64,000 nt of DNA from Acidimicrobiia bacterium (GTDB taxonomy: Bacteria > Actinomycetota > Acidimicrobiia > Spongiisociales > Spongiisociaceae), in NCBI GenBank assembly GCA_022827785.1, contig JAJEIM010000031.1, positions 32,549-96,548 on the forward strand. Reading direction: 5' to 3'. This document shows positions 7,767-42,615 of the stretch, one piece after another (the stretch's first letter is position 1; each line of letters begins with the position of its first letter). The position numbers were made by a program, and so were the translations under genes. Under the pieces are notes generated by a model. The model was not told the origin of the DNA. It did not search any database and saw only the letters and a program-made list of their open reading frames with translations.

Positions 7767-8669
7767 TCAGGGTGGCGGAGCGTCGGCCAGACGGGTCATC
7801 CTGACGTCCACATCCAGGCCGGAGTTGGCGCCTCCTTCCACCACCCCGCGGGTCGGCGGGACATCCCGATAGTCCCGGCCGACCGCTGTTCGCACGTAGC
7901 GGTGGTCGACCAGCGTGCGGTTGGTGGGGTCGAACTCCACCCATCCCAGTTCGGGGAGCCGGCATTCGACCCAGGCATGGGTTGCGGTGCTGGCCGGCCC
8001 GTGCACCCCGTCCGGAGCGTCGTCCACATGTAGGTAGCCGGACACGTAGCGCGCGGGGACGCCCCATGAACGGGCGATCGCGATCATGACGTGGGCATAG
8101 TCCTGGCACACGCCCCTCCGGGTCGAAAGGATCTCGTCGATCGGCGAATCCACCGATGTCGAGCCCGACACGTAGTCGAAGTTGTCGTTCAAGGCTAGGG
8201 CGAGTCCCACCAGATCGGTCAGCGGATCGGACCCCGGCTCGATTCCTGTCTCGGCGACGAAGCCGGTGAGGGCCGGAGTGGGACCGGCGCCGGGACTCGG
8301 GTTAGTGAATTGCCAGGAGGCCAGGTCGGTGGCCCACGATCGCACCACTTCCCACGCTTCTGGCCCGAGGCGTTGCGGCAGTGCCGGCGAGGGGGACACC
8401 TCGACGGTGGAGACGGAGACCACCTCAAGGGTGTCGTGCGTCTCGTTCACGGTGAGGACGTGCCTGGTGTTGCCGAACGGGTCGGTCTCGGCGGTCAGCC
8501 GCCCCGTAGGGGAGGTGGTGATCGCGAACTCCAGTACCCGCTGGCGGTCGCCGTCGAGGGGCCGGAGGCAGAGCGACATGGCGCATCTCCGCACGGAAGA
8601 GATATAGCCGAATCTGGTGAGGTGCTCGATCCGGTAGCGTGTCGCACGAGCCGGACCCGCACTGCTCAC
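7767..8669 (-). CDS. Transglutaminase-like cysteine protease family protein with Bact_transglu_N domain
   Basis: RYRIEHLTRFGYISSVRRCAMSLCLRP matches the bacterial transglutaminase N-terminal domain. The core RRGVCQDYAHVMIAIARSWGVPARYVSGY...H...D gives the Cys-His-Asp triad context. Confidence 0.8.
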   Translation of the reverse strand: MSSAGPARATRYRIEHLTRFGYISSVRRCAMSLCLRPLDGDRQRVLEFAITTSPTGRLTAETDPFGNTRHVLTVNETHDTLEVVSVSTVEVSPSPALPQRLGPEAWEVVRSWATDLASWQFTNPSPGAGPTPALTGFVAETGIEPGSDPLTDLVGLALALNDNFDYVSGSTSVDSPIDEILSTRRGVCQDYAHVMIAIARSWGVPARYVSGYLHVDDAPDGVHGPASTATHAWVECRLPELGWVEFDPTNRTLVDHRYVRTAVGRDYRDVPPTRGVVEGGANSGLDVDVRMTRLADAPPP

Positions 8670-9652
8670 TGGTCGAACTCTCCGATGCGAGCCGACCGGG
8701 TTACCACCGGATAGTCGAAGTAGGTTTCGGTCACCAGGTCGTGGAGCCGGCGGCCGGCGATCCTGAACTCGGCGAACAGGCCTTCGGCGTCGGATGTCCT
8801 GGGCCAGACGAAGCGAAGCAGGTCCGACATGTGGTCCACCTGGGACCGGGCCTGGGAGGTGGCGGTCCGGTCGGGACCGTCCCCGATCGCCGACAACTCC
8901 CGATGCAGTCCGAGAACCGACATGCTCAGCGAGTCGGGGAGGTGCGGGTCGGATACGAGCAGGTCCAGCACCCGGCCGGCGTCGATCGCCAGGCCGTCGC
9001 CCTGCTGGTACGCCTCGAAGGCATGAAACAGGCGGAGCAGGCTGGTCCAGTAGGCGTCCGCGGGCACAGCGAACAGCCGCACCGCGGCGATCTGGGCGCC
9101 CAGCACCGAGGCCACCAACTCGGCTCGTTCCAGGAGGCTACCCATGCGGATGAAGTGCCAGCCCTGATCCCGATACATGGTGGAGGAGCTGACGCCCCGG
9201 AACGTATCGATGTCCGCCTCGACGTTCGCGTAGAACTGCTCCGGCGTCGACGCCCAGATGTCCTGGATCTCCATGTCGCGGAGGCGGAGATACGGCCGGT
9301 TGAGGGATGCCCACATCTCCGCGGAGATGCGGTGGCGCACCTGCCGGGCGTTCTCCCGAGCCAGGGAGAAACAGTTCCGGATGGAGTCGGGCATCGTGGC
9401 CTCAAAGGTGAGATCATCGGCGAGGGTGAAAGAGTCGGCCAGCGTGTAGTACTCGTCTCCTTCCGTGTCTAGGGGCCCCGTATGCGGTCGCCTTCCCAGC
9501 GTGCCGTAGATCCGGTGCCATCCGAAGTAGATGTCACGAACCGGGCTGTCCACCAGCGACTCCGTCTGCTGGCGCATCAGCCGGGCGAGATGGCTGGCCC
9601 TCTCGAGGTACCGGCCGATCCAGTAGAGGCTCTCGGCGCTACGTGCCAGCAT
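8666..9652 (-). CDS. Alpha-E domain protein (DUF403)
   Basis: MLARSAESLYWIGRYLERASHLARLMRQQ... is the typical alpha-E start. It overlaps the downstream transglutaminase gene by 4 bp. Confidence 0.8.
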   Translation of the reverse strand: MLARSAESLYWIGRYLERASHLARLMRQQTESLVDSPVRDIYFGWHRIYGTLGRRPHTGPLDTEGDEYYTLADSFTLADDLTFEATMPDSIRNCFSLARENARQVRHRISAEMWASLNRPYLRLRDMEIQDIWASTPEQFYANVEADIDTFRGVSSSTMYRDQGWHFIRMGSLLERAELVASVLGAQIAAVRLFAVPADAYWTSLLRLFHAFEAYQQGDGLAIDAGRVLDLLVSDPHLPDSLSMSVLGLHRELSAIGDGPDRTATSQARSQVDHMSDLLRFVWPRTSDAEGLFAEFRIAGRRLHDLVTETYFDYPVVTRSARIGEFDQ

Positions 9653-9736
9653 CTCTAGACCACTACCGCGTCCGTCTGGGGAGTTGCTGTGCGGGATGAC
9701 CGCCGGGGCGTACCGAGTCGTCTCGCAGGCGGATCA

Positions 9737-11173
9737 CTACCCCTCCTCCAGTACCCAGAAGTCCTTGGCGCCTCCCCCCTGGCTGGAGTTAACGACCAGG
9801 CTCCCTCGGCGCATGGCGATCCGGCAGAACGCCCCCGGCACGATGCGGGTCTCGCCCCCCGACAGAATGAAGGGCCGCAGGTCCACGTGGCGGGGCTCGA
9901 GGCGGCCGTCGATCAGGCAGGGCGCCCGGGACAGGGCCAGGGTGGGTTGGGCAACGAAGTCGGCCGGATCCTGGCGCAGGAGGGATGCGAACCGGTTCCG
10001 TTCCTCGGCGCTCGCATGGGGACCGACCAGCATCCCGTAGCCGCCGGACTCGCCCACTCGCTTGACCACGAGATGCTCCAGGTTGTCCAGGGTGTACTCC
10101 AGATCCTCGGGGCGGCGGCAGAGGTAAGTTTCCACGTTAGGGATGAGCGGTTCCTCCGCCAGGTAGTAGCGGATCATGTCGGGGACGAAGGCGTAGACGC
10201 TCTTGTCGTCGGCTACGCCCGTGCCCGGGGCGTTGACCACCGATACGTTGCTCAGCCGGGCGGCATGCAACAGGCCGGGGGCGCCGAGCAGAGAGTCCGG
10301 ACGGAACACGAGGGGGTCGAGGAAGTCGTCGTCGATCCGGCGGTAGATGACGTCCACCCGCCGCAGACCCGCCGTGGTGCGCATGTACACGTAACCGTCC
10401 TCGACCACCAGGTCCCGGCCCTCCACCAGTTCGGCGCCGATCTGGCGCGCCAGGAACATGTGCTCGTAGAAGGCCGAGTTGTATACCCCGGGGGTGAGGA
10501 GGACGACCGTCGGGTCGTCGCAACCCTCGGGCGCCATCTCGTGGAGGGTCCGGCGGAGGACCAGCCCGTAGTCCTCCACGGCTCCCACCCGGGAACGCCG
10601 GTAGAGGAGGCGCATGGCCGACTTGGTGGCCTTGCGGATGGCGATCATGTAGGAGACGCCTGAGGGAACTCGCAGGTTGTCCTCGAGAACCCGGAAGCCG
10701 TCCACGGTCCGGACCAGGTCGGTGCCGCAGATGGCCACCCAGATCCCCCTGGGGGCCTCGAATCCCTGCATCTCGATGCGATACTGGGGGCAGCCGAAGA
10801 CCATGTCCGGCGGGATTACCCCATCGGAGACGATCCGGGCCGAGTCGTATATGTCCCGTAGAAAGGCGTTGAGAGCGGCCAGGCGCTGCTCGAGTCCCCT
10901 CGCCAGGCCTCGCCATTCCGCACCCGCCATCACCCGCGGGATGCAGTCGATCGGGATGATGCGCTCGTCGGCCTCGTCGTCGCCGTACACGGTGAAGGTG
11001 ATGCCTTCGTGGGTGAAAGACCGGGTGACCCATTCGCCGATGGCGTTCATGTCGTCGTCGGAAGCCTCCAGGAGGGTCTCGTAGAGGTCCCGACCGTGGG
11101 AACGGGGGGTTCCGTCGCTCCGGAACAACTCGTCGTAGACGCCCGCGTCGAGGTCGTAGCCGTCGAACTTCAT
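9737..11173 (-). CDS. Circularly permuted type-2 ATP-grasp protein (DUF404/DUF407)
   Basis: Starting at the internal Met (MKFDGYDLDAGVYDELF...), at 11173 by codon arithmetic, the protein matches the circularly permuted ATP-grasp family that always partners with alpha-E and transglutaminase. The ORF track's extended N-terminus (to 11362) is low-complexity. Confidence 0.75.
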   Translation of the reverse strand: MKFDGYDLDAGVYDELFRSDGTPRSHGRDLYETLLEASDDDMNAIGEWVTRSFTHEGITFTVYGDDEADERIIPIDCIPRVMAGAEWRGLARGLEQRLAALNAFLRDIYDSARIVSDGVIPPDMVFGCPQYRIEMQGFEAPRGIWVAICGTDLVRTVDGFRVLEDNLRVPSGVSYMIAIRKATKSAMRLLYRRSRVGAVEDYGLVLRRTLHEMAPEGCDDPTVVLLTPGVYNSAFYEHMFLARQIGAELVEGRDLVVEDGYVYMRTTAGLRRVDVIYRRIDDDFLDPLVFRPDSLLGAPGLLHAARLSNVSVVNAPGTGVADDKSVYAFVPDMIRYYLAEEPLIPNVETYLCRRPEDLEYTLDNLEHLVVKRVGESGGYGMLVGPHASAEERNRFASLLRQDPADFVAQPTLALSRAPCLIDGRLEPRHVDLRPFILSGGETRIVPGAFCRIAMRRGSLVVNSSQGGGAKDFWVLEEG

Positions 11174-11334
11174 GCCGCTGATCCCGTCACCCGCACCGGA
11201 GCGACCACCCTTCTCCAAAGGTTTGTTCGCTGCCCGCCGACCACCCTCTCGTCCTGTTCGACCAACCGGTGCCGGAAGCATACCGACACCGGACCGAGCC
11301 GGGCGCCCGGGTGTAACGTGGGCTCCGAGGCCGG

Positions 11335-11847
11335 ATGAGGAGGGACCCGATGGACGCGGCATTGATCAACCGGGTCACTTGGATGATCCCCAATGCTCTG
11401 GCTCTGGTGGGCTCCCGGGCCGGCGACCGATGGAACGGGATGACCACCTCCTGGATCACCCAGCTGTCGATGGAGCCGGTGATGATCGGGATCGGGGTTG
11501 ATAACAAGGCGGTTACCCATCGGCTGATCTCGGACGGAGGTTCTTTCAGCGTCAACCTCTGGTCGCCGGACGATCGGAGGGTGTTCGTGAAATTCTCGAA
11601 GCCCGCCGCCAAGGAGGGCATGTCCCTCAACGGCCGGGCCATCCGGGAAGGTGTAACGGGAGTTCCGATCTTCGAGGATGCCATCGCCTGGATGGAGTGC
11701 GAGGTGAGGCGAGCCATCGACTTCGGGACGCACACGTTGTTCGCCGGCGAACTGGTGTCCGCGGGCGTGATGGACCAACCGGGGCGGGCGGCCTGGATGG
11801 GTGACACCCGTATGAAGTACGGCGGCGTGAAGCGGGGCGGCCACTGA
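11335..11847 (+). CDS. Flavin reductase-like (NAD(P)H:FMN oxidoreductase, HpaC family)
   Basis: LALVGSRAGDRWNGMTTSWITQLSMEPVMIGIGV...SFSVNLWSPDD...LFAGELVS. The gene diverges from the ATP-grasp operon. Confidence 0.7.
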   Translation: MRRDPMDAALINRVTWMIPNALALVGSRAGDRWNGMTTSWITQLSMEPVMIGIGVDNKAVTHRLISDGGSFSVNLWSPDDRRVFVKFSKPAAKEGMSLNGRAIREGVTGVPIFEDAIAWMECEVRRAIDFGTHTLFAGELVSAGVMDQPGRAAWMGDTRMKYGGVKRGGH

Positions 11848-17417: not shown

Positions 17418-18194
17418 TCAGGCCCGGCGAGCGGCCTGGACGAGCGCCCGGGCTCGGGCCGGGTCCACGGGGCGGCGGACATCGCCCTCCTCCTTGATGT
17501 CGGTGCCCACGATCACGCCGTCGGCGGTCCCGAGCAGGGAGGCGACGGTTTCCCCGGTGACGCCGGATCCCACCAGCAACCGGGCGTCGGGGACCGCCTG
17601 CCGGACCTGGCGGATCATCTCCCGGTCCGCCGGGAGGCCGGTCCCGCGCCCGGAGAGGATGATGCCGTCCGCCATCCCGCGGTTCCGCAGGTCGGCTGCC
17701 GCGTCCTCTATGCGGAGGCCGGGCGGGGGAGTGGCGTGCTTCACGAACAGGTCGGCCAGCACCTCGATCTCGGGGTTCAGCGCCGCCCGCAGCCGGGACA
17801 GCCGCGCGGCCTGGCCGACTATCGGACCCTGGTCGGTGTACATCATGGACGAGAGGACGTTCACCCGGATGAACCGGGCATCGCAGGCGGCGGCGATCGA
17901 GAGGGCGGCGACGGCGTCGTTGCGCAGCACGTTCACCCCGACGGGAACGTCCACCGAAGCGCGGACGGCGGCCACGACCCGGGCCAGGGATGCCACGGTG
18001 ATCGGAGGCACCTGATCGGCGAAGAACGGGGCGTCCCCGAAGTTCTCGACCAGGACCGCATCGAAGCCGCTCTCCTCGAGGAGGACCGCGTCGTTGACGG
18101 CGCGCTCCACGATGGGCCCGGTGGGCGGGTGGTAGGAAGGCGAGCCGGGGAGCGGCAGGGCGTGCACCATCCCGATGAGTTGGCGGGAGGCCAT
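17418..18194 (-). CDS. BtpA/SgcQ family TIM-barrel protein
   Basis: MVHALPLPGSPSYHPP...AVLVENFGDAPF matches the BtpA family signature. Confidence 0.7.
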   Translation of the reverse strand: MASRQLIGMVHALPLPGSPSYHPPTGPIVERAVNDAVLLEESGFDAVLVENFGDAPFFADQVPPITVASLARVVAAVRASVDVPVGVNVLRNDAVAALSIAAACDARFIRVNVLSSMMYTDQGPIVGQAARLSRLRAALNPEIEVLADLFVKHATPPPGLRIEDAAADLRNRGMADGIILSGRGTGLPADREMIRQVRQAVPDARLLVGSGVTGETVASLLGTADGVIVGTDIKEEGDVRRPVDPARARALVQAARRA

Positions 18195-18931
18195 CAGAAG
18201 ATGCGCATCTCCTGGAAGGCTATCTCGGCGGCGTCGCCCTTCAGGATCACGTTCTCGGCGTCATCCGGGTGGAGTCGTCCGACTGCTACCCGGCAGATCT
18301 CACCGGCAGGTCCGCGGATGAGTTGTTCAGCGTCGTCGGGGCCGGCCACGTACTTGGCATACATGGGCCCGATCCCCTCGATCCGGACCGGCTCCGTGTA
18401 GTCGTACCCGGCCAGGTCGAAAGCCCACGGGAGGGTCATGTGGGCGAACCAGATGACGTGGCGCAGGCGATCCGTGTCCTCCAGATCTTCTTCCATCGCC
18501 TCGTAGATGTCGAGGCCGTGGGCCCACACCTCCGCCAGCTGGAGGGTGGCAAAGGTCTTGGCGGACATGTCCGAATAGACCCATGGGACGCGGTCGGCGG
18601 CCGAGGTCCGGCTCAAGGCGTCCACCACCTGTGCGCGGCCGAGCCGCCACCACTCGATCACGTCCTGGGGGCGCATCTGCCGGCCTCGCTCGACGCCGAT
18701 CTCGGCGAGGTCGTCGACGCTCTCGTACTCGTCGAGATCGTCGAGCATGGTGCCGTCCTCTGCGATGGCGTTGTAGGCGTACTCCTGAAAGTGGGCCAGG
18801 TGGGAGATCGTGTCGCGGATGGTCCACTCGTCGTGGGGGAGGCGGATGCCCCACTTGCTGACGGTGATCCTCTGGAGAAACTGGTCGAGCTGCTGCTGTT
18901 CGGCAACGAGGTCAGACAATACTTCCCGCAT
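18194..18931 (-). CDS. Maleylpyruvate isomerase N-terminal domain / DinB-like (mycothiol-dependent enzyme family, TIGR03083-like) protein
   Basis: TISHLAHFQEYAY...WAHGLDIYEA resembles the His-rich DinB_2/MDMPI_N fold. It overlaps the upstream stop by 1 nt. Confidence 0.55.
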   Translation of the reverse strand: MREVLSDLVAEQQQLDQFLQRITVSKWGIRLPHDEWTIRDTISHLAHFQEYAYNAIAEDGTMLDDLDEYESVDDLAEIGVERGRQMRPQDVIEWWRLGRAQVVDALSRTSAADRVPWVYSDMSAKTFATLQLAEVWAHGLDIYEAMEEDLEDTDRLRHVIWFAHMTLPWAFDLAGYDYTEPVRIEGIGPMYAKYVAGPDDAEQLIRGPAGEICRVAVGRLHPDDAENVILKGDAAEIAFQEMRIF

Positions 18932-19039: not shown

Positions 19040-20137
19040 TCAGGCTGTGTGCGGTCTGGGTAACGGACCCTCGAAACCGGGAGTCTCGTACACGTAGCTG
19101 TTGAGCCGGTCGACCAGCAGGCGCAGGCGTCCCAGGCTCCGCCGGTCGAACCACATCGCCAGCCGGGCACAGTCGAGAGCGTCTCCGTCGCTGATCTCGG
19201 CCTGGAGGGGGCCGACTGCCTCGATCCGGCCTCCGGCGAGGATGTCTGCGAACTCGTCGTTGAGCTGCTCTACCTGCCGCTCGGTGGGGGCGTGTCGCAG
19301 CCGGAGCACCAGCCGCCCGTCCACGTAGCGCTGGGAGTGGTAGTTGGCGTAGAACCGGCAGATCTCGTCAGCGGCGGTCACCGCGTCGCCGGCTCGCACG
19401 AACAGGTTGGTGTCCGCCGGGCTGATCATCCCGCCCCGTTCGAGGCGGTCGTCGACGAAGGCCTGCCATGAGGACCAGTAGGACGTGCCTGCCTCCATCA
19501 GGACGACGGGCTGGATGGGCGCCTTCCCGGTCTGGATCAGCGTGAGAAGCTCGAATGCCTCATCCATGGTGCCGAAGCCGCCCGGGAAGATGGCGAAGGC
19601 GTGGGACTCCTTGACGAAGCCGAGCTTGCGGGTGAAGAAGTACTTGAAGTTGATCAGCCGGGATTCGGCGACATAGGGGTTGGGCGCGGCCTCGAACGGC
19701 AGCCGGATGTTGACGCCGAAGGAACCCTCCCGGCCGGCGCCCCGGTTCCCGGCCTCCATGATCCCCGGTCCGGCGCCCGTCACCACCATCCATCCCCGCT
19801 CCTGCCACATCAGGCGGGCGAAGTCGCTGGCCAACCGGTAGTCGGGATGGTCCGGCGGCGTGCGCGCCGACCCGAAGATGGTCACCTTCGGCGTGCAGTC
19901 ATGCGCCCTGAATACCTTGGAGGAATACCTCATCTCCTTGAGGGCACTATTGAAGAGCTTGATCTCCCAGCGGTCCGCCCGGTCCCGGTGGAGCTTGAGT
20001 GCGGTGGTCATGAGCTCGGCGATAAGGTCCTGGTTCTCACCGTTCCCGGCCCGAGCGACAAGATCGCGGATCATCCTGTCGAGTTGCGGGTTTCCCATGC
20101 TGTATCGAGCCATCGCCCCTCCCGTGTCCGCTCCCAA
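19040..20137 (-). CDS. LOG family protein (TIGR00730 Rossmann-fold nucleotide-binding, long form)
   Basis: IFGSARTPPDHPDY...VVTGAGPGIMEAGNRGA...FAIFPGGFGTMDEAFELLTLIQTGK carries the PGGxGTxxE LOG motif. An extra C-terminal domain of about 130 aa follows. Confidence 0.8.
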   Translation of the reverse strand: MGADTGGAMARYSMGNPQLDRMIRDLVARAGNGENQDLIAELMTTALKLHRDRADRWEIKLFNSALKEMRYSSKVFRAHDCTPKVTIFGSARTPPDHPDYRLASDFARLMWQERGWMVVTGAGPGIMEAGNRGAGREGSFGVNIRLPFEAAPNPYVAESRLINFKYFFTRKLGFVKESHAFAIFPGGFGTMDEAFELLTLIQTGKAPIQPVVLMEAGTSYWSSWQAFVDDRLERGGMISPADTNLFVRAGDAVTAADEICRFYANYHSQRYVDGRLVLRLRHAPTERQVEQLNDEFADILAGGRIEAVGPLQAEISDGDALDCARLAMWFDRRSLGRLRLLVDRLNSYVYETPGFEGPLPRPHTA

Positions 20138-20231: not shown

Positions 20232-21128
20232 TCAGTTGGCGCTGTCCGCCAATGCCAGGCATACCCCGTCGAGGATGTCGTAGCCGGTGACCGTGATCGT
20301 TTCCAGGCCGAGAACGCGTAGGGCGGTCTCGGCTACGACCGCGCCGCCGAGGATGATCGGAGCCCTCCTCGGATCGAGGGAGGGAATGGCCTCCTTCTCC
20401 TCCAGGCTGAGCGAACCCAGCCATGCGACCATCCGCTCCAGGTCCGCCAGGCCGAGGGTGGCCCCCTCCACCTCTCGGGAGTCGTGGGTGTCCAGGCGCA
20501 GATGCATGGCCGCCAGGCTGGTCCAGGTGCCTGCTGTTGCCATCGCTCGGGATCGCCGCGGCGGATCGGCGGTGCCCATGGCGTGAGCAGCCTCACGGCG
20601 GGCCGAAGCGAGGTGTCCGGGAGCGGCTGGGTGGGTGGGCAGGCACCGTTCGGTCAGCCGGATCGACCCGATGTTCACCGAGACGCCGCCCTGATCGGTG
20701 ACGATCTCGGTGCTCCCTCCCCCGATGTCCAGCACCAGTATCCGGCCGGGGTCGCCATCGCGGGCGGTGGCGCCCCGGAAGCAGAGCTCGGCCTCCTCCT
20801 CGCCGCTGATGACATCGGGCCGGAAACCCAGCGCCTGCCGGGCCGCCTCCAGGAACTCCTCGCGGTTGACCGCGTCACGGGTGGCGGCCGTGGCGACCGC
20901 CCTCGCCCGGGTGACGTCCGCCGACCCGATTCGCCGCCCGTACCCGGCCAGCACCCGGGCGGTCCGCTCGATGGACTCCGGCGCCAACCGTCCCGATCGG
21001 GTCGAGCCGCGCCCCAACCCGGTCACCTGCTCGATCCGCTCCACATCGGCCATCCCGTGGCGCGCGATATCGGCGATCAGCAACCGGGTGGAGTTGGTGC
21101 CGATATCGACCGCCGCGAACCGTGGCAC
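20232..21128 (-). CDS. Ppx/GppA family exopolyphosphatase / guanosine pentaphosphate phosphohydrolase
   Basis: AAVDIGTNSTRLLIAD...LVLDIGGGSTEI is the ASKHA fold of Ppx/GppA. Confidence 0.8.
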   Translation of the reverse strand: MPRFAAVDIGTNSTRLLIADIARHGMADVERIEQVTGLGRGSTRSGRLAPESIERTARVLAGYGRRIGSADVTRARAVATAATRDAVNREEFLEAARQALGFRPDVISGEEEAELCFRGATARDGDPGRILVLDIGGGSTEIVTDQGGVSVNIGSIRLTERCLPTHPAAPGHLASARREAAHAMGTADPPRRSRAMATAGTWTSLAAMHLRLDTHDSREVEGATLGLADLERMVAWLGSLSLEEKEAIPSLDPRRAPIILGGAVVAETALRVLGLETITVTGYDILDGVCLALADSAN

Positions 21129-21137
21129 CGCCGCCGG

Positions 21138-22145
21138 CTACGACCCGAACGGAGGCTCGGCCGGTCCCTTGCGCACGCAGGCCGCCCACACCGTCTCGTA
21201 GTGGTCGATGTCGTAGGGATCGATGTGGTGGAGCACCATGGCCTCCCACGCCGTGCGGAGCGGGTCCTCCCACTCCCTGTACACCATCAGGCCCACCGGG
21301 AGGCGGTCGAGAACCGTCCGCAGGCTGATCGGGGTCTCCACCCTGGTGCCGGGGTCGGTCGAGAGGAACGACCGGTTGATCTCGGTGGCCAGCCTGCTGA
21401 TGTGGCGCACGTACACGTCGCGCATCGACGGGTAGCGGCGGTCCAGCATGGCCTCGATCTCGGTGATGTCGGGAAAGTCCTTCTCCCAGATCACCCACCG
21501 GTCGGCGAAGGCCTTGTTGAGGGTCTGGGTGCCGGCGTAGTCGCGCAGGTCGGTCGGGTTCATCGTCCCGAACAGGCGGACATCCTCCCGGAGGGGCACC
21601 GTCTCGCCGGTCGGCAGGTCCAGCGCCGCGTAACGGTCGAGCAGGCCGTGCAGGGCGAAGAGGGTCTCGGCGCCGGCGGCGTTCAGCTCGGACAGGTTCA
21701 CGAGGGCGGTTCCTCGCAGCGCCCTCGTGATATCACCGTCCTCCCAGCGGCTCTCCGTGCCGCCGAGGCCGTCTCCGTAGAGTTTCACCGAACCGATGAG
21801 GGTGATGTCGCGCACCTCGCCGGTCAGCGGTATCCGGTAGTAGGGCAGGCGCAGCAGGGCGGCGAACTGCTCGATGTCGTGGTCCTTGCCGGTCCCCATG
21901 TGGCCCCGCACCGCCAGGTGGAGCGGCACCGTCCCCTCGGGCTGCTCCCGCCGGATCTTCTCCACCTGCGCGAAGCGGTAGAGCATGCCTACGTCGACGT
22001 AGTGGGGGTCCGGTTCGGGAATCTTGTTGATGCGCTGCTCGTAGTCCCGCACGCCGCTCGTGGGAACCGCGACCGTGTCCAAGGTGATGGGCCGGCCCGT
22101 TCCGGTCGGGTCGGTGAACGTGACCTTGGTGGGTTGTTCAGGCAC
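21138..22145 (-). CDS. CobS-like AAA+ ATPase
   Basis: LHLAVRGHMGTGKDHDIEQFAALLRLPYYRIPLTGEVRDITLIGS...DRWVIW aligns closely with aerobic cobaltochelatase CobS (YHGTGKSTHIEQVAARLNWPCVRVNL...DRWSIV). It overlaps the upstream VWA gene by 8 nt. Confidence 0.65.
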   Translation of the reverse strand: MPEQPTKVTFTDPTGTGRPITLDTVAVPTSGVRDYEQRINKIPEPDPHYVDVGMLYRFAQVEKIRREQPEGTVPLHLAVRGHMGTGKDHDIEQFAALLRLPYYRIPLTGEVRDITLIGSVKLYGDGLGGTESRWEDGDITRALRGTALVNLSELNAAGAETLFALHGLLDRYAALDLPTGETVPLREDVRLFGTMNPTDLRDYAGTQTLNKAFADRWVIWEKDFPDITEIEAMLDRRYPSMRDVYVRHISRLATEINRSFLSTDPGTRVETPISLRTVLDRLPVGLMVYREWEDPLRTAWEAMVLHHIDPYDIDHYETVWAACVRKGPAEPPFGS

Positions 22146-24282
22146 TGCGTAGCTCCGGCATGAGAGGGCTGTTCCCGGTCTGCTGGCGGCCGGCCCGGAT
22201 CCACCAGGTGTCCTCCCCGTCCAGGGCCAGGCCTCGGCGGAGCGCCATCCTCACCCCGGCCACCATTGAGTTGGCCAGCTCGTCCGGACGCGAGATCACC
22301 TGGTGGTGACGGTAGGCGGAGACCACTGTATCGTCCCCCACGCCGATACCCAGAACCGTGGTGCCCCGGCCGTCCACCTCCTCGACCGACCGGGCCAGAG
22401 CCTCCACCGACCCCCTGGTCATCCCGTCGGCCAGCACCACCATCACCCGAACCCGGGCGCCGTGGTTGGCCAGGCGCTCGGCAGCGTAGGTGACGTTCAA
22501 CTCGTCCACGTTGGCCCCCTTCTCGAACAGCGACACGGGCGGGGTCGAGCGCGGGTTGCGCCGCGCCTCGATTCCCGCCTCACCCGTGCGGGCTGCCGTC
22601 CAGAACAAGCCGGCGAGGAGGTCGTCGGACCGCCGCCAGGGTTCGTGGAAGGCCGACAGGACGTAGTGATTGACGGTGGAGGTGAGCCGGTCGGCCGCCG
22701 CTCCGTGGCTCTGGCGCAACTCGCTGATCGCGGCGGACCGCCGGCGGGAGTACGTCCATTCGGTGTCGTCCACCTGGGCGGCGAAGGCCCGGTTGAAGAG
22801 GGCCACCTCGAAGTCCACCCGGAGTTCGTTGCACATGGCCGCCAGGGTCCAGGCGCCGAGCATGGCGGCCGCCAGACCCCAGGGGCGGCGGTCGCGGGGC
22901 GCCGACAGGCGCCTCGGCTGGAGCATGGAGGCCGATCCGTCGACCAGGACGCTGACCGCGTAGGACCGCCGGGTCGAGACGGACCGGCGCTCGAACATCC
23001 GCTGGTACAGGCCGCCTCCCAAAAACAGCGCGGCGTGGGGTGACAGGTCGCCGGCATCGAAGCCCGATCTCAACCCGCGGCGCTGGTTGGCGATGAACAG
23101 GGGATGCAGCTCGCCCCCCACCCGCCGCTGATCGACGTTCCACTCCCGGGCTGCATCCACGAGGGCGGTCCTCCCGCGGTGGGAGAAGCTGCGGAAGGAG
23201 TCGGGGACGCCCGCCACGGCCAGCTTGCCGCTCTGGCCGTTGGGGAGGTAGATGACCGGGGCCTGGCTGACCATCAGCAACTGGTCGGTTCCCTCGCCGG
23301 AGGTCCGGTCCATCCGGGCGGCTCTCAGTTCGAGGCCGGTGGGATCCTCGGCACCCCGCCGGATCTCGTTGTAATGATCGGCGTCCTGGACGGCGGGGGA
23401 GAAAAGCCTGACCCGGTCGAGACCGTCGGTCATGGCGTCCTTCTCGGCCTGCTCCCGTTCCCGGCGAGCCTGGGGCTGGTCGTCCGGCCGGGCCTCCTGT
23501 ACCAGGCTGTGCGCCCTCGCGATGGCGAGGAGTTGCATCGCGAGGTCGCCGGTGTCCCACGGTCGGGCGGCGACCGCTGCCTCGTCGAGAACGGCGCGGG
23601 AGTCCGCCCACGCGGCCCCGGACCGGGAGTCGAGGAGCCGTTCCAGACTGTGGGCGGGCACGTAGCCGCCCACGGACATGAAGCAGGCGATGGTGAACCG
23701 GATGAGCGGGCCGCGGCCCGCCAGCGCTCCCCGGAGGGAGGACCGGTACAGGTCTTCGAGAACGGAGCGGGCGCCCGGGTAGTCGGCCAGGCCCTGGCGT
23801 TCCTGGCGGGCGTCCTCGATCGCGAAGAAGAGGGCCTCGGCCGGGGGACCGCCGGTCCGGTCGAGAGCCTCCAGCAGGGTGAAGTCCTCCCCGTCATTCG
23901 GGCCGGGCTGGTCGTCCAGGAGCCAGTGGTCGGGTATGGGACGGCGCTCGTCGAAGTCGGAGGAGACCAGGTGGATCACCTCGTGGAGCGCCGAGGCGAG
24001 TGCGGTCTCCTCGGCGGTCACGGGAGCTCTGCGCCCGTAGGCCGCCTGGAAGAGTCCGGGGTCGATGACCACCTCGTCCCCGGACGCCCGGCTGGAGGCG
24101 CCGAGCATCACCCGCAGTTCCTCCCTACCGGTCAGGGTGCGGGCGACACGGGTGACGGCGCCCGCCACCCGCTGGTACCGGCCGACCACCGACTCGATGG
24201 CGCGTTCTTCCGGGGGAAGGATCTCGGCCAGCAGCGAGCGATCTCGAGGTGTCACAAAGCTCCATTGTCGCAGGTGTCGCAC
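22138..24282 (-). CDS. VWA domain protein, CobT-like, with N-terminal HExxH motif
   Basis: The MIDAS-type VWA motif SVLVDGSASM sits in the C-terminal third. The N-terminal region has ALHEVIHLVSSDFDE, an HExxH...D pattern. At 714 aa it is directly upstream of, and overlapping, the CobS-like ATPase. Confidence 0.6.
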   Translation of the reverse strand: MRHLRQWSFVTPRDRSLLAEILPPEERAIESVVGRYQRVAGAVTRVARTLTGREELRVMLGASSRASGDEVVIDPGLFQAAYGRRAPVTAEETALASALHEVIHLVSSDFDERRPIPDHWLLDDQPGPNDGEDFTLLEALDRTGGPPAEALFFAIEDARQERQGLADYPGARSVLEDLYRSSLRGALAGRGPLIRFTIACFMSVGGYVPAHSLERLLDSRSGAAWADSRAVLDEAAVAARPWDTGDLAMQLLAIARAHSLVQEARPDDQPQARREREQAEKDAMTDGLDRVRLFSPAVQDADHYNEIRRGAEDPTGLELRAARMDRTSGEGTDQLLMVSQAPVIYLPNGQSGKLAVAGVPDSFRSFSHRGRTALVDAAREWNVDQRRVGGELHPLFIANQRRGLRSGFDAGDLSPHAALFLGGGLYQRMFERRSVSTRRSYAVSVLVDGSASMLQPRRLSAPRDRRPWGLAAAMLGAWTLAAMCNELRVDFEVALFNRAFAAQVDDTEWTYSRRRSAAISELRQSHGAAADRLTSTVNHYVLSAFHEPWRRSDDLLAGLFWTAARTGEAGIEARRNPRSTPPVSLFEKGANVDELNVTYAAERLANHGARVRVMVVLADGMTRGSVEALARSVEEVDGRGTTVLGIGVGDDTVVSAYRHHQVISRPDELANSMVAGVRMALRRGLALDGEDTWWIRAGRQQTGNSPLMPELRSA

Positions 24283-24313: not shown

Positions 24314-25132
24314 TCACGCCACGAATACGGCCAGCAATCCCGCCAGGAGGACTATGGAGGGCACGAGGGTCCGCGCCAGATCGGCGCCGGGGCCCGGCGG
24401 GATCCTCTGCCAGGCCCCCACGATGAGCATCCCGGCCAGGAGACCGCCCACGTGGGCTTCCCATGCGATCCCCGGAACCAGGAGGGGCATCGCGAGGTTG
24501 ATCGCCAGTAGGAGGAGGAGCTGGCGGAACCGGGCGGCGCCGGCCGCGGTGTGGCGGAGGGGGTAGGTCCCCACCAGAACGGCGCCGAAGAGCCCGAAGA
24601 TGGCGCCCGAGGCCCCCACGGCGCCGCCGTCCGACAGGTACTGGAAGAGCACCCCTCCCGCCACCGCGCACGCGAGGTAGAGCGCCACGAAGCGGACAGT
24701 CCCGGCCTGCCGCTCGATGTACGGCCCGAACAGGTAGAGGGCGTACATGTTGAAGAGGATGTGGACGATGCTGCCGGTGGAGTGCAGGAAGGTGGCGGTG
24801 ACGACCCGCCACCACTCGCCGGCGCTGACCGCCACGGTTATGTGGGCGTAGTCGATGGTGAACCGGGCGTTCACGCGCTGGGCGAGGTAAGCAGCCACGG
24901 ACACCAGGATGATGGTGAGGACCGCCGGGGTGATGCCGGAGCGGATGCTGCGGGCGGGCACCACCCGCGTCGTGGCGCCGGCGCACTCCGGGCATCGCTG
25001 GCCCACGGGTGAGTCCCGGGAACATTCCCCACAGATGTGACGGTCGCACCGCGAGCACCGCAGGTAGGTGGTCCGCTCCGGGTGCCGGTGGCAGGTGGCC
25101 GGGCCGCCGGCGCCGGAAGTTCCGTTGTCCAT
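24314..25132 (-). CDS. Rhomboid family intramembrane serine protease with N-terminal zinc-ribbon
   Basis: The Cys-rich N-terminus is CHRHPERTTYLRCSRCDRHICGECS...CPEC. Rhomboid motifs GASGAIFG (GxSG) and AHVGG are present. The start is the Met at 25132; the ORF track extends to 25213. Confidence 0.8.
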   Translation of the reverse strand: MDNGTSGAGGPATCHRHPERTTYLRCSRCDRHICGECSRDSPVGQRCPECAGATTRVVPARSIRSGITPAVLTIILVSVAAYLAQRVNARFTIDYAHITVAVSAGEWWRVVTATFLHSTGSIVHILFNMYALYLFGPYIERQAGTVRFVALYLACAVAGGVLFQYLSDGGAVGASGAIFGLFGAVLVGTYPLRHTAAGAARFRQLLLLLAINLAMPLLVPGIAWEAHVGGLLAGMLIVGAWQRIPPGPGADLARTLVPSIVLLAGLLAVFVA

Positions 25133-25268
25133 GCGGCCATTGTACGGGCGGAACGGCGAGCACCCGGCGGGGTTGCGCCGGGGTGAGGGAAGGCGAACCT
25201 CCTCGGGAGGCATGCCATTCCCGGCGGCCGGTCAACCTGCAACCGCCGAGCCTGTACCATGCCCGCCC

Positions 25269-26519
25269 ATGCAGGTTGAGATCTCCCGGACGTCCACGGG
25301 GCTGACGGTCGTGACCGAACCGGTGCCGGGGGTCCGGTCGGTGGCGGTCGGGTGCTGGATAGACACCGGTAGCAGGGATGAGCGGCCCGGCGAGGCGGGC
25401 GCCGCCCACTTCCTCGAGCACCTCCTCTTCAAGGGGACCGAGGAGTTGTCGGCCCGCTACATCTCCGAGACGTTCGACGCCATCGGCGCCCAGAGCAATG
25501 CCTTCACCTCCAAGGAGTACACCTGCTTCTGGGCCCGCATGCTCGACAGCGAGCTGGATACCGGCATGGATCTGCTGGCGGAGATGCTCCAGCGTCCCGC
25601 GTTCCGGCCGGATGAGATCGACTCCGAACGCAACGTGGTGATCGAAGAGATAAACATGAACGAGGATGACCCTTCGGATGTCGCGGGGGAGACCTTCATG
25701 CGGACTCTCTTCGAGGGACATCCGCTGGGCCTGCCGGTGCTGGGGACCCGGGAGTCGATCGGTGGCATGACCCCGGAGGATCTGAGAGGCTACTGGCGGA
25801 GGCGCTACGGCGCGGGAACAGCGCTGGTGGCCGTGGCAGGCAATGTGGAACACGAGAAGGTGGTGGAGATGGTGGAGTGCCGGTTCGACGCCTGGGAGGC
25901 GGAGGACGGCGCCCATGACCTGGCCGCACCCCGGGTCGGCCCCGCCGCGAGCGTGGTGGAGCGGGACACGGAGCAGGTCCACCTGGTCTACGGGGGCGAG
26001 TCGATCCACCGCACCGACGGGGGCAGGATCGCCGACGGCGTGATGCATCACATCCTGGGCGGCGGGATGTCATCCCGCCTGTTCCAGAAGATCCGCGAGG
26101 AACGCGGCCTGGCCTACGCGGTCCACAGCTTCACGATGCGCTTCGCCGAGACGGGCGGGTGGGGCGTGTACGTGGGCACCACGCCGGCCAATTCCCACAC
26201 GGTCATGGAGATCCTCGCCGAGGAGATCGGGCGGATGGTCTCGGAGGGAGTGACGGAAGCCGAACTGGACAGGGCCAAGGGACACATGCGGGGCGCCGTG
26301 GCCCTCTCGATGGAGGACACCAACGCCCGGATGATCCGCCTGGGGCGCAACCAGATGTTCGGACTGCCCCATCTCTCCCTCGACGAGCGCCTGGCCCGGG
26401 TCGAGGCCGTCACCAGGGCGGACATCGCGGGCATGGCCGCCCGCAATCTGACCGGTCCCCGGGTGGTCGGCGCCGTGGGTCCGCTGCCCGCCGGCGAGTT
26501 CGAGCGATACCTGTCGTGA
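25269..26519 (+). CDS. pepR: M16 family zinc peptidase (PepR-like, insulinase family)
   Basis: The inverted zinc motif HFLEHLLFKGT (HxxEH), starting from MQVEISRTSTGLTVVTE. The Met at 25269 comes from codon arithmetic. Confidence 0.8.
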   Translation: MQVEISRTSTGLTVVTEPVPGVRSVAVGCWIDTGSRDERPGEAGAAHFLEHLLFKGTEELSARYISETFDAIGAQSNAFTSKEYTCFWARMLDSELDTGMDLLAEMLQRPAFRPDEIDSERNVVIEEINMNEDDPSDVAGETFMRTLFEGHPLGLPVLGTRESIGGMTPEDLRGYWRRRYGAGTALVAVAGNVEHEKVVEMVECRFDAWEAEDGAHDLAAPRVGPAASVVERDTEQVHLVYGGESIHRTDGGRIADGVMHHILGGGMSSRLFQKIREERGLAYAVHSFTMRFAETGGWGVYVGTTPANSHTVMEILAEEIGRMVSEGVTEAELDRAKGHMRGAVALSMEDTNARMIRLGRNQMFGLPHLSLDERLARVEAVTRADIAGMAARNLTGPRVVGAVGPLPAGEFERYLS

Positions 26520-39221: not shown

Positions 39222-40320
39222 CCAGGACCAGTGCCCCGTTCACAAGCTGTGGGAAGGGCTGGGCCAGGCCTTCGCGGAGCGGGTTGGGATTGGAGTCGAC
39301 CTCGAGCATGCCGTCACCACCCGCTGCTGCCAGCAGGTGAGCGGAAGCCACGACCCCGATTCCCGCCCCGAGATGGTGGGGGCAGTAGCGGCGGCCGGCT
39401 GCCAGGATCCGCCTGGCGACCGGCAGGCATCCCGAGATGCCGCCCCACTTGGTGACGTCCGGCTGGATCACGGCCAGCGCCCCGGTGGCGATCGCCCTGC
39501 CGAAGGCCGCTTCGCCGTACAGGTTCTCGCCGCCCGCCAGGGGGATGGGAGAGTCGTCGGCCAGGCTCCTCCAGTCGGCGCCGGGCCGGTCGGCGGGGAT
39601 CGGTTCCTCCAGCCAGGCCGGCGCGTAGGGCGCAAGCGAGCGGATCATCGACCTGGCCACGTCGGGGGACCAAGCCTGGTTGGCATCCAAGGCGACGGTG
39701 GTTTCCCGGCCCAACTCGCTCCGCATCCGGTCGAGGTTGGCGAGGTCGCGCCGCTCCCCGAAGCCGACCTTCAGCTTGAAGGCGCGGTGGCCCTCCGCCC
39801 GGGCCGAAGCGGCCTGTCCGGCTGGATCCTCCGGTCCTATCCCGCTGGCGTAGGCCGGCACCCGCCCGCTTCCCGAATCGCCGAGGAGCCGCCAGAGCGG
39901 CAGGCCGGCCCGCCGCGCCACCATGTCCCAGAGTGAGATGTCGATGCCGGCGATGCACTGGGCGAACGGTCCCGGTTCCCCCGCCTGGATGCCGAGCAGT
40001 CTGGAGCTTTCCGTCAGGTGATCGAACACGGCCTCGGGCCCGGACCACTGCCTGCCGACGATGGCCGGTGCCAGCACCCGGGAGATCAGGTCGGCCCGGT
40101 AACCGGCGGCGGGTTCGGGAAAGTTGCACCACACCTCCCCGTATCCCGTGGTTCCGTCGTCGGATCGGGTGGTGACCACCACCGCCGGACGGTCTTCCAT
40201 GGTCCCGAAGGAGGTCCTTACCGGGCGGGCGACGGGGGCGCGGTAGACCTGGACCGCCAGCGACTCGATGGTGAACGGGTCGGTGGCGGGGCCGCCGCAA
40301 GTGGTGTCGATAGCGCTCAT
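39151..40320 (-). CDS. Enolase-superfamily enzyme, mandelate racemase/muconate lactonizing enzyme family
   Basis: KLKVGFGERRDLANLDRMRSELG...VALDANQAW...LEEP...DVTKWGG are the MR/MLE metal-ligand and KxK motifs. It diverges from the sulfatase gene. Confidence 0.75.
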   Translation of the reverse strand: MSAIDTTCGGPATDPFTIESLAVQVYRAPVARPVRTSFGTMEDRPAVVVTTRSDDGTTGYGEVWCNFPEPAAGYRADLISRVLAPAIVGRQWSGPEAVFDHLTESSRLLGIQAGEPGPFAQCIAGIDISLWDMVARRAGLPLWRLLGDSGSGRVPAYASGIGPEDPAGQAASARAEGHRAFKLKVGFGERRDLANLDRMRSELGRETTVALDANQAWSPDVARSMIRSLAPYAPAWLEEPIPADRPGADWRSLADDSPIPLAGGENLYGEAAFGRAIATGALAVIQPDVTKWGGISGCLPVARRILAAGRRYCPHHLGAGIGVVASAHLLAAAGGDGMLEVDSNPNPLREGLAQPFPQLVNGALVLGDAPGLGVAPDGSVSGLRVDGDG

Positions 40321-40365
40321 GGTCGCGAGTATGGTTACCGCCGTCGGCAAAGGCCAGGAAGGTCG

Positions 40366-42615
40366 ATGAGCCCCAGCACTGATCCGGGCGCAGCGCAGGA
40401 CGCTCCGAGCTACCCGGAGCCGGATTTCGAGGGTGTGATCGGGCCCGACTTCCGGGAGTCGGTTCCGTGGTGGCCGGCGATGGCGAACGATGCCCGCGGC
40501 AAGCCGGACGTCGTGCTGGTGGTGCTGGACGATGTCGGCTTCGCCGGTCTCGGGTGCTACGGGGCCGAGGTGGATACGCCCGTTATGGATGCGCTGGCGG
40601 AGCGGGGGCTGCGTTTCAACGACTTCAACGTCACCCCGCTGTGCTCACCGACCCGCGCCTGCGTGCTCACCGGGCGCAACCATCACAGCGTAGGGATGGC
40701 CTACCTGTCGAATGTCGACTCGGGGTTCCCCGGACACCGCGGCCGGGTGACGAAGTCGGCCGGCAACCTGGGAGAGGTGCTGGCGGGTGCCGGCTATGCA
40801 ACGATGGCGATCGGCAAGTGGCATCTGGCGCCCCTCGAGGAGACCACTGCCGCCGGTCCCTACGACGAGTGGCCGCTGGGACGCGGGTTCGGTCGCTACT
40901 ACGGCTTCCTCGACGCCCTCACCGATCATTTCTACCCTGACGTGGTGGAGGACAACCACCGGGTGGATCCGCCGGGCAGTCCCGAGGACGGCTACCACCT
41001 GACCGAGGACCTGATCGACCACGCCATCTCCTACGTGAGCGACCAGGTCTCGGTCAAGCCCGAGCAGCCCTTCTTCCTCTACGCGGCCTTCGGCACGGCT
41101 CACTGTCCCCACCAGGCCCCCCAGGAGTATCTGGACAAGTACCGCGGGCGTTACGACGAGGGTTGGGACGTGGTTCGCGAGCGCCGCTTCGCCCGCCAGA
41201 AGGAGATGGGGATCGTTCCCGAGGATGCGGTTCTGGCGCCGCTCAACCCGGGCGTGGAGGCTTGGGCCGACCTCACCCCTAACCAGCAGAAGCTCTTCGC
41301 CCGTTTCCAGGAGGCATACGCAGCCATGCTGGACCATACGGACGCCCAGTTGGGTCGGCTGGTGGACTTCCTGGAGTCGATCGGGCGGCTCGACAACACG
41401 GTCTTCGTGGTCCTTTCCGACAACGGGGCCAGCCAGGAGGGAGGGCCGGACGGCGGGGCCGACATCGTGACCTACGAGGAGGACCGCTTCTGCACCGTGG
41501 ACTTCAACATGGAGCGGTTCGACACCATCGGCGGCCCGCACTCCCAGACCAACATCCCGTGGGGATGGGCGCAGGCCGCCAACACCCCCCTGCGCTGGTA
41601 CAAGCAGAACACCTACGCGGGCGGGGTGCGGACCCCGATGATCGTCTCCTGGCCGGAAGGCCTGGCGGACACCGGCGGCGTGAGAACGCGGTTCGTCCAC
41701 GCCATCGACATCGCCCCCACCATCCTGGATCTCGTGGATGTGGCGCCCAAGTCCTCGTACGGCGGTGTGGACCAGATGCCCTACCACGGTGCCAGCATCC
41801 GCGATGTGCTGGACGACCCCGGCGCTCCCGCCCCTCGCGACCGGCAGTACTTCGAGATGATCGGCCACCGGGCCATGTGGCAGGACGGCTGGAAGGCCCT
41901 CACCCGGCACCGGCGGAACGAACCCTTCGAGGACGATCCTTGGGAGCTGTACCACATCGACTCCGATTTCTCCGAATGCAAAGATGTGGCCGCCGAACAC
42001 CCCGACAAGCTGGCCGATCTGGTTGGGCGGTGGTCGGAGGAGGCCTCCCGGTACTCGGTGTTCCCGCTCGACGACCGCTACCTGGCGGTGAGGGCTTCCA
42101 CTTTCCAGACTCCCGGTACGCCGAGGGCGAGGGACACGTTCTCATACCTCGGCGGTTCGAGCCGGGTGCCGGGCGCCGCCACCCCGCTGGTGTTCAACCG
42201 GGACTTCAGGATCACGGCCCGGATCGCCCCACTGGGCGCGGCTGACGAGGGGGTGCTGGTGGCAGTGGGCGATGTGAGCGGAGGCTACGTCCTGTACCTG
42301 GCCGGCGGGCACCTCGTGTTCGAGTACTGCTACCTCGGTGAACGCCAGACGCTTGCCTCGTCCGATCCGGTGATCCCAGGGGCGACCGAACTGTCGTTCC
42401 GGTTCGCGAGGACCGGGGACTACCGGGGCATCGGCCGGCTGGAAGCCGACGGCCGGACTCTCGGCGAGATGGAGATGGCCTCCATGGCCCGGGGCATGAT
42501 CTCCTGGGGGTCTCTCAGCGTCGGCGCCGACACGCTGTCCCCGGTGAGCAGTTCTTACGAGGGCGAGTTCCCCTACACAGGAAGCCTGGAGAGAGTCGAC
42601 TTCGACCTCGGCTGA
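40366..42615 (+). CDS. Arylsulfatase (formylglycine-dependent sulfatase family)
   Basis: VVLVVLDDVGFAGLGCYG...TPLCSPTRACVLTGR carries the C-x-P-x-R motif. The ATG at 40366 has a ggaagg Shine-Dalgarno; the track ORF's longer N-terminus overlaps the divergent gene. Confidence 0.8.
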   Translation: MSPSTDPGAAQDAPSYPEPDFEGVIGPDFRESVPWWPAMANDARGKPDVVLVVLDDVGFAGLGCYGAEVDTPVMDALAERGLRFNDFNVTPLCSPTRACVLTGRNHHSVGMAYLSNVDSGFPGHRGRVTKSAGNLGEVLAGAGYATMAIGKWHLAPLEETTAAGPYDEWPLGRGFGRYYGFLDALTDHFYPDVVEDNHRVDPPGSPEDGYHLTEDLIDHAISYVSDQVSVKPEQPFFLYAAFGTAHCPHQAPQEYLDKYRGRYDEGWDVVRERRFARQKEMGIVPEDAVLAPLNPGVEAWADLTPNQQKLFARFQEAYAAMLDHTDAQLGRLVDFLESIGRLDNTVFVVLSDNGASQEGGPDGGADIVTYEEDRFCTVDFNMERFDTIGGPHSQTNIPWGWAQAANTPLRWYKQNTYAGGVRTPMIVSWPEGLADTGGVRTRFVHAIDIAPTILDLVDVAPKSSYGGVDQMPYHGASIRDVLDDPGAPAPRDRQYFEMIGHRAMWQDGWKALTRHRRNEPFEDDPWELYHIDSDFSECKDVAAEHPDKLADLVGRWSEEASRYSVFPLDDRYLAVRASTFQTPGTPRARDTFSYLGGSSRVPGAATPLVFNRDFRITARIAPLGAADEGVLVAVGDVSGGYVLYLAGGHLVFEYCYLGERQTLASSDPVIPGATELSFRFARTGDYRGIGRLEADGRTLGEMEMASMARGMISWGSLSVGADTLSPVSSSYEGEFPYTGSLERVDFDLG

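Follow-up and report, generated by a model that had tools for sequence, protein, structure and literature searches.

Results

Organization and conservation of the adaptor-ATPase locus

An earlier note on a 64-kb stretch of DNA from an Acidimicrobiia bacterium (contig JAJEIM010000031.1; the whole stretch is called the window below) had drawn attention to a tight minus-strand unit encoding a CobT-like protein with a VWA domain and an HExxH motif, a CobS-like AAA+ ATPase and a Ppx/GppA phosphatase. Here, we analysed these genes and their relatives, and refer to the CobT-like protein as the adaptor. The list of open reading frames (ORFs) and direct reading of the DNA agreed with the note on the position of the three genes, on the overlap between the first two and on the 9-nt gap before the third:

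22138–24282, minus strand: CobT-like adaptor gene, 714 aa as listed, 705 aa from the probable start
21138–22145, minus strand: CobS-like AAA+ ATPase gene (AAA_5/MoxR class), 335 aa
20232–21128, minus strand: Ppx/GppA-family phosphatase gene, 298 aa

The stop of the adaptor gene and the GTG start of the ATPase gene share an 8-nt overlap, reading GTGCCTGA, and the ATPase gene is translationally coupled to the adaptor gene. The TAG stop of the ATPase gene is separated by 9 nt from the GTG of the Ppx gene. An alternative start of the adaptor, GTG at 24255, is probably the true one and would yield a 705-aa protein, because GGAG lies 4 nt upstream of it and the closest homologues are 705 aa long. 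The GC content was uniform (66–72%) over the whole window, and a promoter/terminator scan was uninformative.

In 81 of the 83 related loci that we searched with the window proteins (flanks up to 10 kb), the ATPase gene was the immediate downstream neighbor of the adaptor gene; the two exceptions, L014 and L075, lie on contigs that stop right at the adaptor gene or no more than about 50 nt away from it. When one genome per species was scanned, at least 105 adaptor loci turned up; of the 80 kept, nearly all carry the label Acidimicrobiia or Actinomycetota, and a few are assigned to other phyla. Those nearest to the window belonged to Candidatus Spongiisociaceae, which we take to be sponge symbionts. 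Database searches yielded 1107 adaptor homologues of about 700 aa, those with names coming from Acidimicrobiia metagenome-assembled genomes (MAGs), where the protein is called "hypothetical"; at 50% clustering, the full-length sequences fell into essentially two groups, a main cluster and the marine cluster P0130 of 650-aa proteins. Among the best 120 matches for each protein, all named ones were likewise MAGs, with no cultured host among them. Taken together, the adaptor-ATPase module is conserved across the class Acidimicrobiia.

The adaptor is a divergent CobT superfamily member

The adaptor carries the following features, listed from the N to the C terminus; translation placed both the HEVIH and the MIDAS (adhesion site dependent on metal ions) motif DGSAS where the earlier note had them.

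23488–24282, minus strand: CobT_N-like, zincin-like N-terminal domain (residues 1–265)
23971–23985, minus strand: HExxH motif, H100 E101 V I H104 (HEVIH, residues 100–104), coordinates checked by translation
23800–23817, minus strand: EDARQE motif (E156 D157 ... E161) on the next long helix, candidate third metal ligand
22969–23130, minus strand: conserved segment just before the VWA domain (residues 385–438, PLFxANQRRGLRSGxDxGDxSP)
22213–22968, minus strand: C-terminal VWA domain with MIDAS site (D448, S450, S452; T536/N538; D619)
22927–22941, minus strand: DGSAS motif (residues 448–452), checked by translation

The 714-aa sequence had no Pfam match even at E = 10 and none in NCBIfam or PADLOC. 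PHROG returned weak matches to phage "CobT" families, tblastn against phages gave only short C-terminal matches, and a single-sequence search of the PDB gave nothing useful; the adaptor family profile matched the solved CobT_C marginally in the PDB (21vt, E 0.04). The same profile reached proteins of 560–800 aa that match Pfam CobT_C and CobT. Alignment to CobT-like proteins with hhalign gave a probability of 100% and E of 1.8e-41 over 549 columns from the N to the C terminus, pairing HExxH with HExxH and EDARQE with the EDxRIE of the CobT-like proteins, and among 60 HExxH-bearing CobT-like relatives Pfam detected CobT in 29 and CobT_C in 51. The adaptor therefore has full-length profile homology to proteins matching CobT (PF06213) and CobT_C (PF11775), with no direct match of its own to either model. 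Because the profile-profile match covers the full length and aligns motif to motif, we place the adaptor in the CobT superfamily, where its sequence marks it as a divergent member. The description of this protein as CobT-like with a VWA domain was thus correct, but the relationship is visible only by profile-profile comparison.

Conservation of the HExxH motif and its loss from canonical CobT

Conservation of the HExxH, which the earlier note had proposed as a check, was complete: H100, E101 and H104, as well as E156, D157, R159, Q160 and E161, were invariant in 27 adaptor orthologs with identities down to 55%. Across the N domain, alignments of 83 and 60 CobT-like sequences showed no invariant positions other than H100, E101, H104 and D157, and E156 and E161 were at least 90% conserved in the 83-sequence alignment, whose members are otherwise 12–23% identical. 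HExxH was found at residues 58–122 in 33 of 38 distant relatives in a first check and, in a wider set, in nearly all non-canonical relatives (640–1020 aa), often followed by EDxRIE. The marine sub-clade P0130 (650 aa, 32% GC; L085 1938–4876, and L084) kept it as HEAIH. The motif is therefore not special to this adaptor gene and is a trait of the CobT superfamily that had previously been noticed in phages.

In contrast, about 40 canonical-length sequences of the wider set (600–630 aa, DNSGS MIDAS), several of them named cobaltochelatase CobT, lacked HExxH. In the N domain of 11 aligned canonical CobT sequences, D-[A/S]-x-x-[L/M/V/I] stood at the HExxH positions, all three residues being replaced, and E[Q/S/N]ARVE (E..R.E) was retained on the next helix. 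The EDARQE of the adaptor aligned to EDxRIE in the non-canonical CobT-like proteins and to E[Q/S/N]ARVE in canonical CobT. Because canonical CobT does without HExxH, the motif is dispensable for the fold and for ATPase binding, and its retention outside canonical CobT implies a function of its own. Since the retained motif includes the non-ligand catalytic Glu, and real CobT works without the motif, a catalytic role is suggested, and judging from these alignments the N domain of the adaptor most likely has a catalytic, peptidase-type role.

The first full-length model of the adaptor was poor over residues 1–110, and the N domain was remodelled with a deeper alignment. The N-domain model shows strands at 57–73, followed by a helix at 90–107 bearing HExxH and a helix at 136–164 bearing E156 and E161. 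By sequence and model topology, the helix with HExxH comes after a small beta-sheet, as in zincins. The N domain of CobT itself has been reported to resemble the M48C peptidase domain (bioRxiv 10.64898/2026.07.21.739949).

The putative shaft segment and the VWA domain

The MIDAS residues D448, S450, S452 and D619 were invariant in the 27 adaptor orthologs. Foldseek with the full-length adaptor model, which detected the VWA domain alone, returned the VWA domain of NorD (9qhe_G, E 2.1e-5) and the MIDAS domain of midasin, and the C-terminal domain as modelled is a VWA fold closest to these two. In the preceding segment, residues 394–415 were invariant in the same 27 orthologs, and residues 385–438 as a whole, although nearly invariant, had a predicted local distance difference test score (pLDDT) below 50. 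When nucleotide is bound, the shaft of CobT (Q373–R413) enters the ring of CobS (bioRxiv 10.64898/2026.07.21.739949). Because residues 385–438 of the adaptor occupy the same position, we infer by analogy that they are the counterpart of this shaft. The adaptor combines an HExxH-bearing N domain and a C-terminal MIDAS VWA domain with an adjacent AAA_5 ATPase, the combination that characterizes zincin-vWA adaptors.

A CobS-like ATPase with apparently exchanged Walker residues

The ATPase matched Pfam AAA_5 (PF07728) with E 2.4e-11 and 44.2 bits against a cut-off of 22, and scored 44.7 bits against the 558.55-bit cut-off of the CobS equivalog TIGR01650, far from CobS membership. Its best profile match was phrog_249, a phage CobS-like family (6.2e-25), and in the PDB it matched the AAA modules of midasin, CobS (E 1.9e-11), NorQ (2.8e-9) and CbbQ (6.5e-8). 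The claim that the AAA+ protein aligns well to CobS holds at the level of motifs, but the TIGR01650 score speaks against orthology; on profile evidence the protein is a CobS-like AAA+ protein of the AAA_5/MoxR class and not a CobS ortholog. Both of its Walker motifs deviate from the canonical form:

21882–21905, minus strand: Walker A GHMGTGKD, Asp88 in place of the canonical Ser/Thr
21687–21704, minus strand: Walker B LVNLSE, Ser152 in place of the canonical Asp, Glu153 retained

The motifs were assigned by alignment to midasin, in which Walker A pairs with GxGKT and Walker B with LDELNLA. The ATPase therefore lacks the canonical Walker motifs of CobS, which read GKS (G71–S78) and DE (D141–E142) in the solved protein (bioRxiv 10.64898/2026.07.21.739949). 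A phage CobS-like protein encoded beside an HExxH CobT-like protein carries canonical GTGKT and ADEYD. Both deviations were invariant in 80 of 80 ATPase orthologs derived from the loci; a motif search of database cluster representatives found the Walker A form in 120/120 and the Walker B form in 119/120, and the 32% GC marine clade also has the Asp and the Ser. As many as 141 of the 335 positions of the ATPase were invariant, and K87, E153, N196, R216 and R276 were all invariant. Mapped through the midasin alignment and numbering offsets to CobS, these residues would correspond to the Walker A Lys (K87), the catalytic Glu (E153), sensor 1 (N196), the Arg finger (R216) and, probably, sensor 2 (R276). 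The Walker changes look like a conserved exchange of two Mg2+-ligand positions, not like decay.

The only literature precedent that we found for the Walker A Asp was the Walker A GxxGxGKN of torsins, AAA+ proteins in which the Walker A lysine is likewise followed by a residue other than Ser/Thr (PMC3352338). The likeness ends there: the residue is Asn in torsins and Asp here, that paper reports no Walker B Ser for torsins, and the proteins are otherwise unrelated.

Gene neighborhood of the module

Around the adaptor-ATPase pair lie core genes whose order is fixed: M16 peptidase, dapB, dapA, RNase J, FtsK and Lhr. The marine clade with 32% GC has the pair at the same genomic place. The Ppx/GppA protein matched PF02541 with E 1.4e-46 and 159.7 bits against a cut-off of 27, which assigns it to the Ppx/GppA family, but with 212 bits it stayed below the cut-off of 307 of the exopolyphosphatase model TIGR03706, so that no substrate can be given for it. 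It followed the pair in 10 of the 83 loci (L003–L012), whose CobT-like proteins are about 62–80% identical to that of the window, and was not found in the flanks (up to 10 kb) of the remaining loci. In all more distant loci, the pair is followed by LOG-like, MDMPI and BtpA genes at variable distance, and other lineages have differing insertions at the junction behind the ATPase gene. Because Ppx was found only in these 10 loci of one sub-lineage, it lies outside the conserved module, as a recent lineage-specific insertion at a variable junction. The co-occurrence check suggested for Ppx thus failed to reveal a conserved linkage, and Ppx as a conserved partner was ruled out by its restriction to the sub-lineage closest to the window.

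In the window, the Ppx/GppA gene adjoins a gene for a LOG/Lysine_decarbox protein with weak similarity to the PpnN nucleosidase (19040–20137, minus strand, 365 aa); this LOG-like gene is the usual downstream neighbor of the pair, at variable distance, in lineages without Ppx. Further downstream, the MDMPI_N/DinB-like and BtpA-family genes (17418–18931, minus strand) share a 1-nt boundary at 18194 and stay together downstream of the module across the class, the marine clade included. The Acidimicrobiia hosts of the BtpA-family gene are non-photosynthetic.

On the other side, a rhomboid protease gene (24314–25213, minus strand) lies 31 nt upstream of the listed adaptor start; its product has a weak N-terminal match to a B-box-like zinc finger, and tblastn (E 1e-8) found it in closer relatives only, so that it is not a conserved partner. 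On the strand opposite to the rhomboid gene, the ORF listed for the M16 peptidase (25068–26519, plus strand, 483 aa) extends over the 5′ end of that gene; homologues of the peptidase are 416–429 aa long, and the real start of the ORF is therefore probably downstream of the listed one. In most loci, M16-dapB is divergent from the rhomboid and adaptor genes.

Elsewhere in the window, an operon at 7767–11362 (minus strand) encodes circularly permuted ATP-grasp, Alpha-E domain and transglutaminase-like proteins, a trio that forms a recognized, functionally uncharacterized gene cluster. An 865-aa sulfatase is encoded at 40018–42615 (plus strand); sulfatases are enriched in sponge symbionts, which would agree with the affinity of the window to Spongiisociaceae. 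A 479-aa ORF with high GC at third codon positions (GC3), at 50861–52300 (plus strand), had no Pfam match.

Absence of cobalamin genes from the locus

A Pfam scan of 47 window ORFs (46 selected by GC3, and DapB) found no cob gene, and the window has no CobN-sized ORF, the sole ORF above 900 aa being the Lhr helicase. In five related loci whose gene tables were read, the genes with a Pfam annotation likewise included no cob gene. The earlier observation that cobN and other cob genes are missing nearby thus stands for the 64-kb window, and the sequence comparisons as a whole indicate that the adaptor-ATPase pair is very probably not a cobaltochelatase.

Discussion

Comparison with known ATPase-adaptor systems

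The pair resembles CobS and CobT of the cobaltochelatase CobSTN (9ujv, 9uka, 21vt) in its gene order, adaptor then ATPase, and in having an AAA_5-type ATPase of about 330 aa. The adaptor further shares with CobT an N domain, a linker, a probable shaft, a VWA domain with a DxSxS MIDAS and the E..R.E motif on the second N-domain helix. It departs from these proteins in scoring far under the family cut-offs and in lacking a CobN/cob context in the window; the HExxH kept throughout the adaptor family is replaced by D-[A/S]-x-x-[L/M/V/I] in real CobT, and the GKD and SE of its ATPase contrast with the GKS and DE of CobS.

With NorQ/NorD and CbbQ/CbbO, the pair has in common an AAA_5-type ATPase, a VWA domain structurally closest to that of NorD, and the logic of motor, adaptor and client. 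The clients of those systems, NorB and Rubisco, are encoded nearby, whereas we found no such client gene here, and NorD and CbbO are not known to possess an N domain of the zincin-like HExxH type.

In phages, an HExxH-type metallopeptidase fused to vWA beside a MoxR ATPase has already been noted (PMC7824862; PMC8651126). Iyer et al. (2021, PMC7824862) described, in jumbo phages, a MoxR ATPase whose partner is a vWA protein with a metallopeptidase fused to its N terminus, and proposed a role in virion assembly and processing. The "CobS/CobT" of phages and mobile elements, such as gp043/gp044 of Rhizobium phage RHEph10, indeed have the same architecture as the pair studied here, with intact HExxH and EDxRIE. 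Those pairs, however, lie in replication modules, have ATPases with canonical GKT/DE motifs and are only about 15–20% identical to the Acidimicrobiia pair, which sits on the chromosome in fixed core synteny throughout the class. The architecture as such was therefore already known; what is new is its chromosomal, class-wide form in core synteny, and its complete lack of annotation.

A proposed motor-adaptor with a putative zincin site, and its alternatives

We tentatively favor a housekeeping motor-adaptor of the CobST/NorQD type that would bring a client protein to a live zincin site, where the client would be processed or matured. As in its family, the CobS-like AAA+ protein would assemble into a ring, and, if the solved CobS-CobT and NorQ-NorD complexes are a guide, the nucleotide-bound ring would grip the adaptor shaft. 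ATP would be used to reposition the adaptor. The HExxH...ED.R.E site of its apparently zincin-type N domain is intact and the MIDAS site of its VWA domain is complete, and it could hold a client protein between the VWA/MIDAS face and the N domain. The N domain would then, most likely, cleave or process this client in an ATP-assisted maturation or quality-control step, because HExxH was lost in real CobT and kept in nearly all examined relatives outside cobalamin synthesis. The homology, the conserved motifs, the coupling of the genes and the synteny are established here, and the ring-shaft assembly, the peptidase activity and a protein client are inferred from them. The motor-adaptor part of this explanation is much safer than the peptidase part.

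Several findings weigh against it. No client protein was identified, and Pfam peptidase models, including M48 and DUF2201_N, matched none of the 60 HExxH-bearing members. In the marine P0130 sub-clade, VHSFEE replaces the EDxRxE present in all others, which could mean that the third metal ligand differs there or that the alignment is shifted. The non-canonical residues at both Mg2+-ligand positions could also make the AAA+ protein a slow or regulated ATPase and not a motor. A bolder version of the same idea appears doubtful to us, namely that the pair is a housekeeping machine common to the class Acidimicrobiia, whose AAA+ ring has a rewired Mg2+ site (Walker A Asp and Walker B Ser, a charge swap retained by all orthologs examined) and drives an active zincin-VWA protease or maturase, an ancestral and catalytically live CobT adaptor acting on an essential client.

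The module may instead be a metal-insertion chaperone that supplies a housekeeping metalloenzyme with a metal ion, with HExxH...E holding the transferable metal. We consider this rather unlikely, even with precedents in NorQ/NorD (non-heme iron), CoxD/CoxE (the carbon monoxide dehydrogenase cluster) and CobST (cobalt), and with a motor-adaptor-effector model that has been described (bioRxiv 10.64898/2026.07.21.739949). The closest solved relatives of the pair (CobS, NorQ and the VWA domain of NorD) are all metal-insertion machines, and HExxH plus a Glu makes a good metal-binding site. However, a pure binding site has no need of the non-ligand Glu of HExxH, the zincin general base, which was invariant in 83 sequences; real CobT inserts its metal without HExxH, and no candidate metalloenzyme was consistently adjacent in the 83 loci. 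It is improbable that the proteins are genuine, divergent cobaltochelatase subunits working with a CobN from another part of the genome, given the scores of 44.7 versus 558.55 bits for TIGR01650 and the lack of any NCBIfam CobT match, the HExxH kept here and absent from the canonical CobT examined, the lack of cob genes in the window and in the annotated genes of the five loci, and the persistence of the pair in a low-GC marine lineage. The homology to CobS and CobT is nevertheless real, though distant, and Liu et al. (PMC8651126) proposed that viral CobST hijacks the CobN of the host.

An origin as a domesticated phage or mobile-element module, or a function in anti-phage defense, has very little probability in our view. 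Four other HExxH CobT-like genes were examined in their context, and three of them sit amid phage or mobile-element replication genes, the fourth amid mostly unannotated genes; the three would suit a phage-derived module. Against this, the three proteins of the window had no PADLOC match at E up to 1, the GC content is uniform, the core-gene position is fixed across the class, and 141 ATPase positions are invariant. With its core synteny across 83 loci, its even GC content and the lack of PADLOC matches, the locus stands apart from a virus or mobile element, and on these features we rejected a defense island; an ancient transfer of the module from or to phages may have occurred. A three-gene unit, in which the motor-adaptor would act together with Ppx/GppA in polyphosphate or (p)ppGpp metabolism, is the suggestion made by the 9-nt spacing, which points to co-transcription in the source organism, and by the LOG/PpnN-like gene just downstream. 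This reading is largely refuted, and its chance very slim, since Ppx is adjacent in only 10/83 loci, all of the sub-lineage closest to the window, and other lineages carry variable insertions after the ATPase gene.

Implications

More than 1000 database sequences without a Pfam or NCBIfam label now find a place in the CobT superfamily. The practical impact of the findings is moderate. The pair of Walker A Asp and Walker B Ser amounts to a natural experiment in P-loop chemistry that is directly testable. Our results also suggest that "CobS/CobT" labels outside cob operons, including many phage "B12 auxiliary metabolic genes", do not mean cobalamin synthesis. Finally, the relatives outside cobalamin synthesis that we examined almost all keep a complete HExxH site, whereas real cobaltochelatase CobT has lost it, and this split suggests that cobaltochelatase CobT descends from an ATP-coupled metallopeptidase adaptor.

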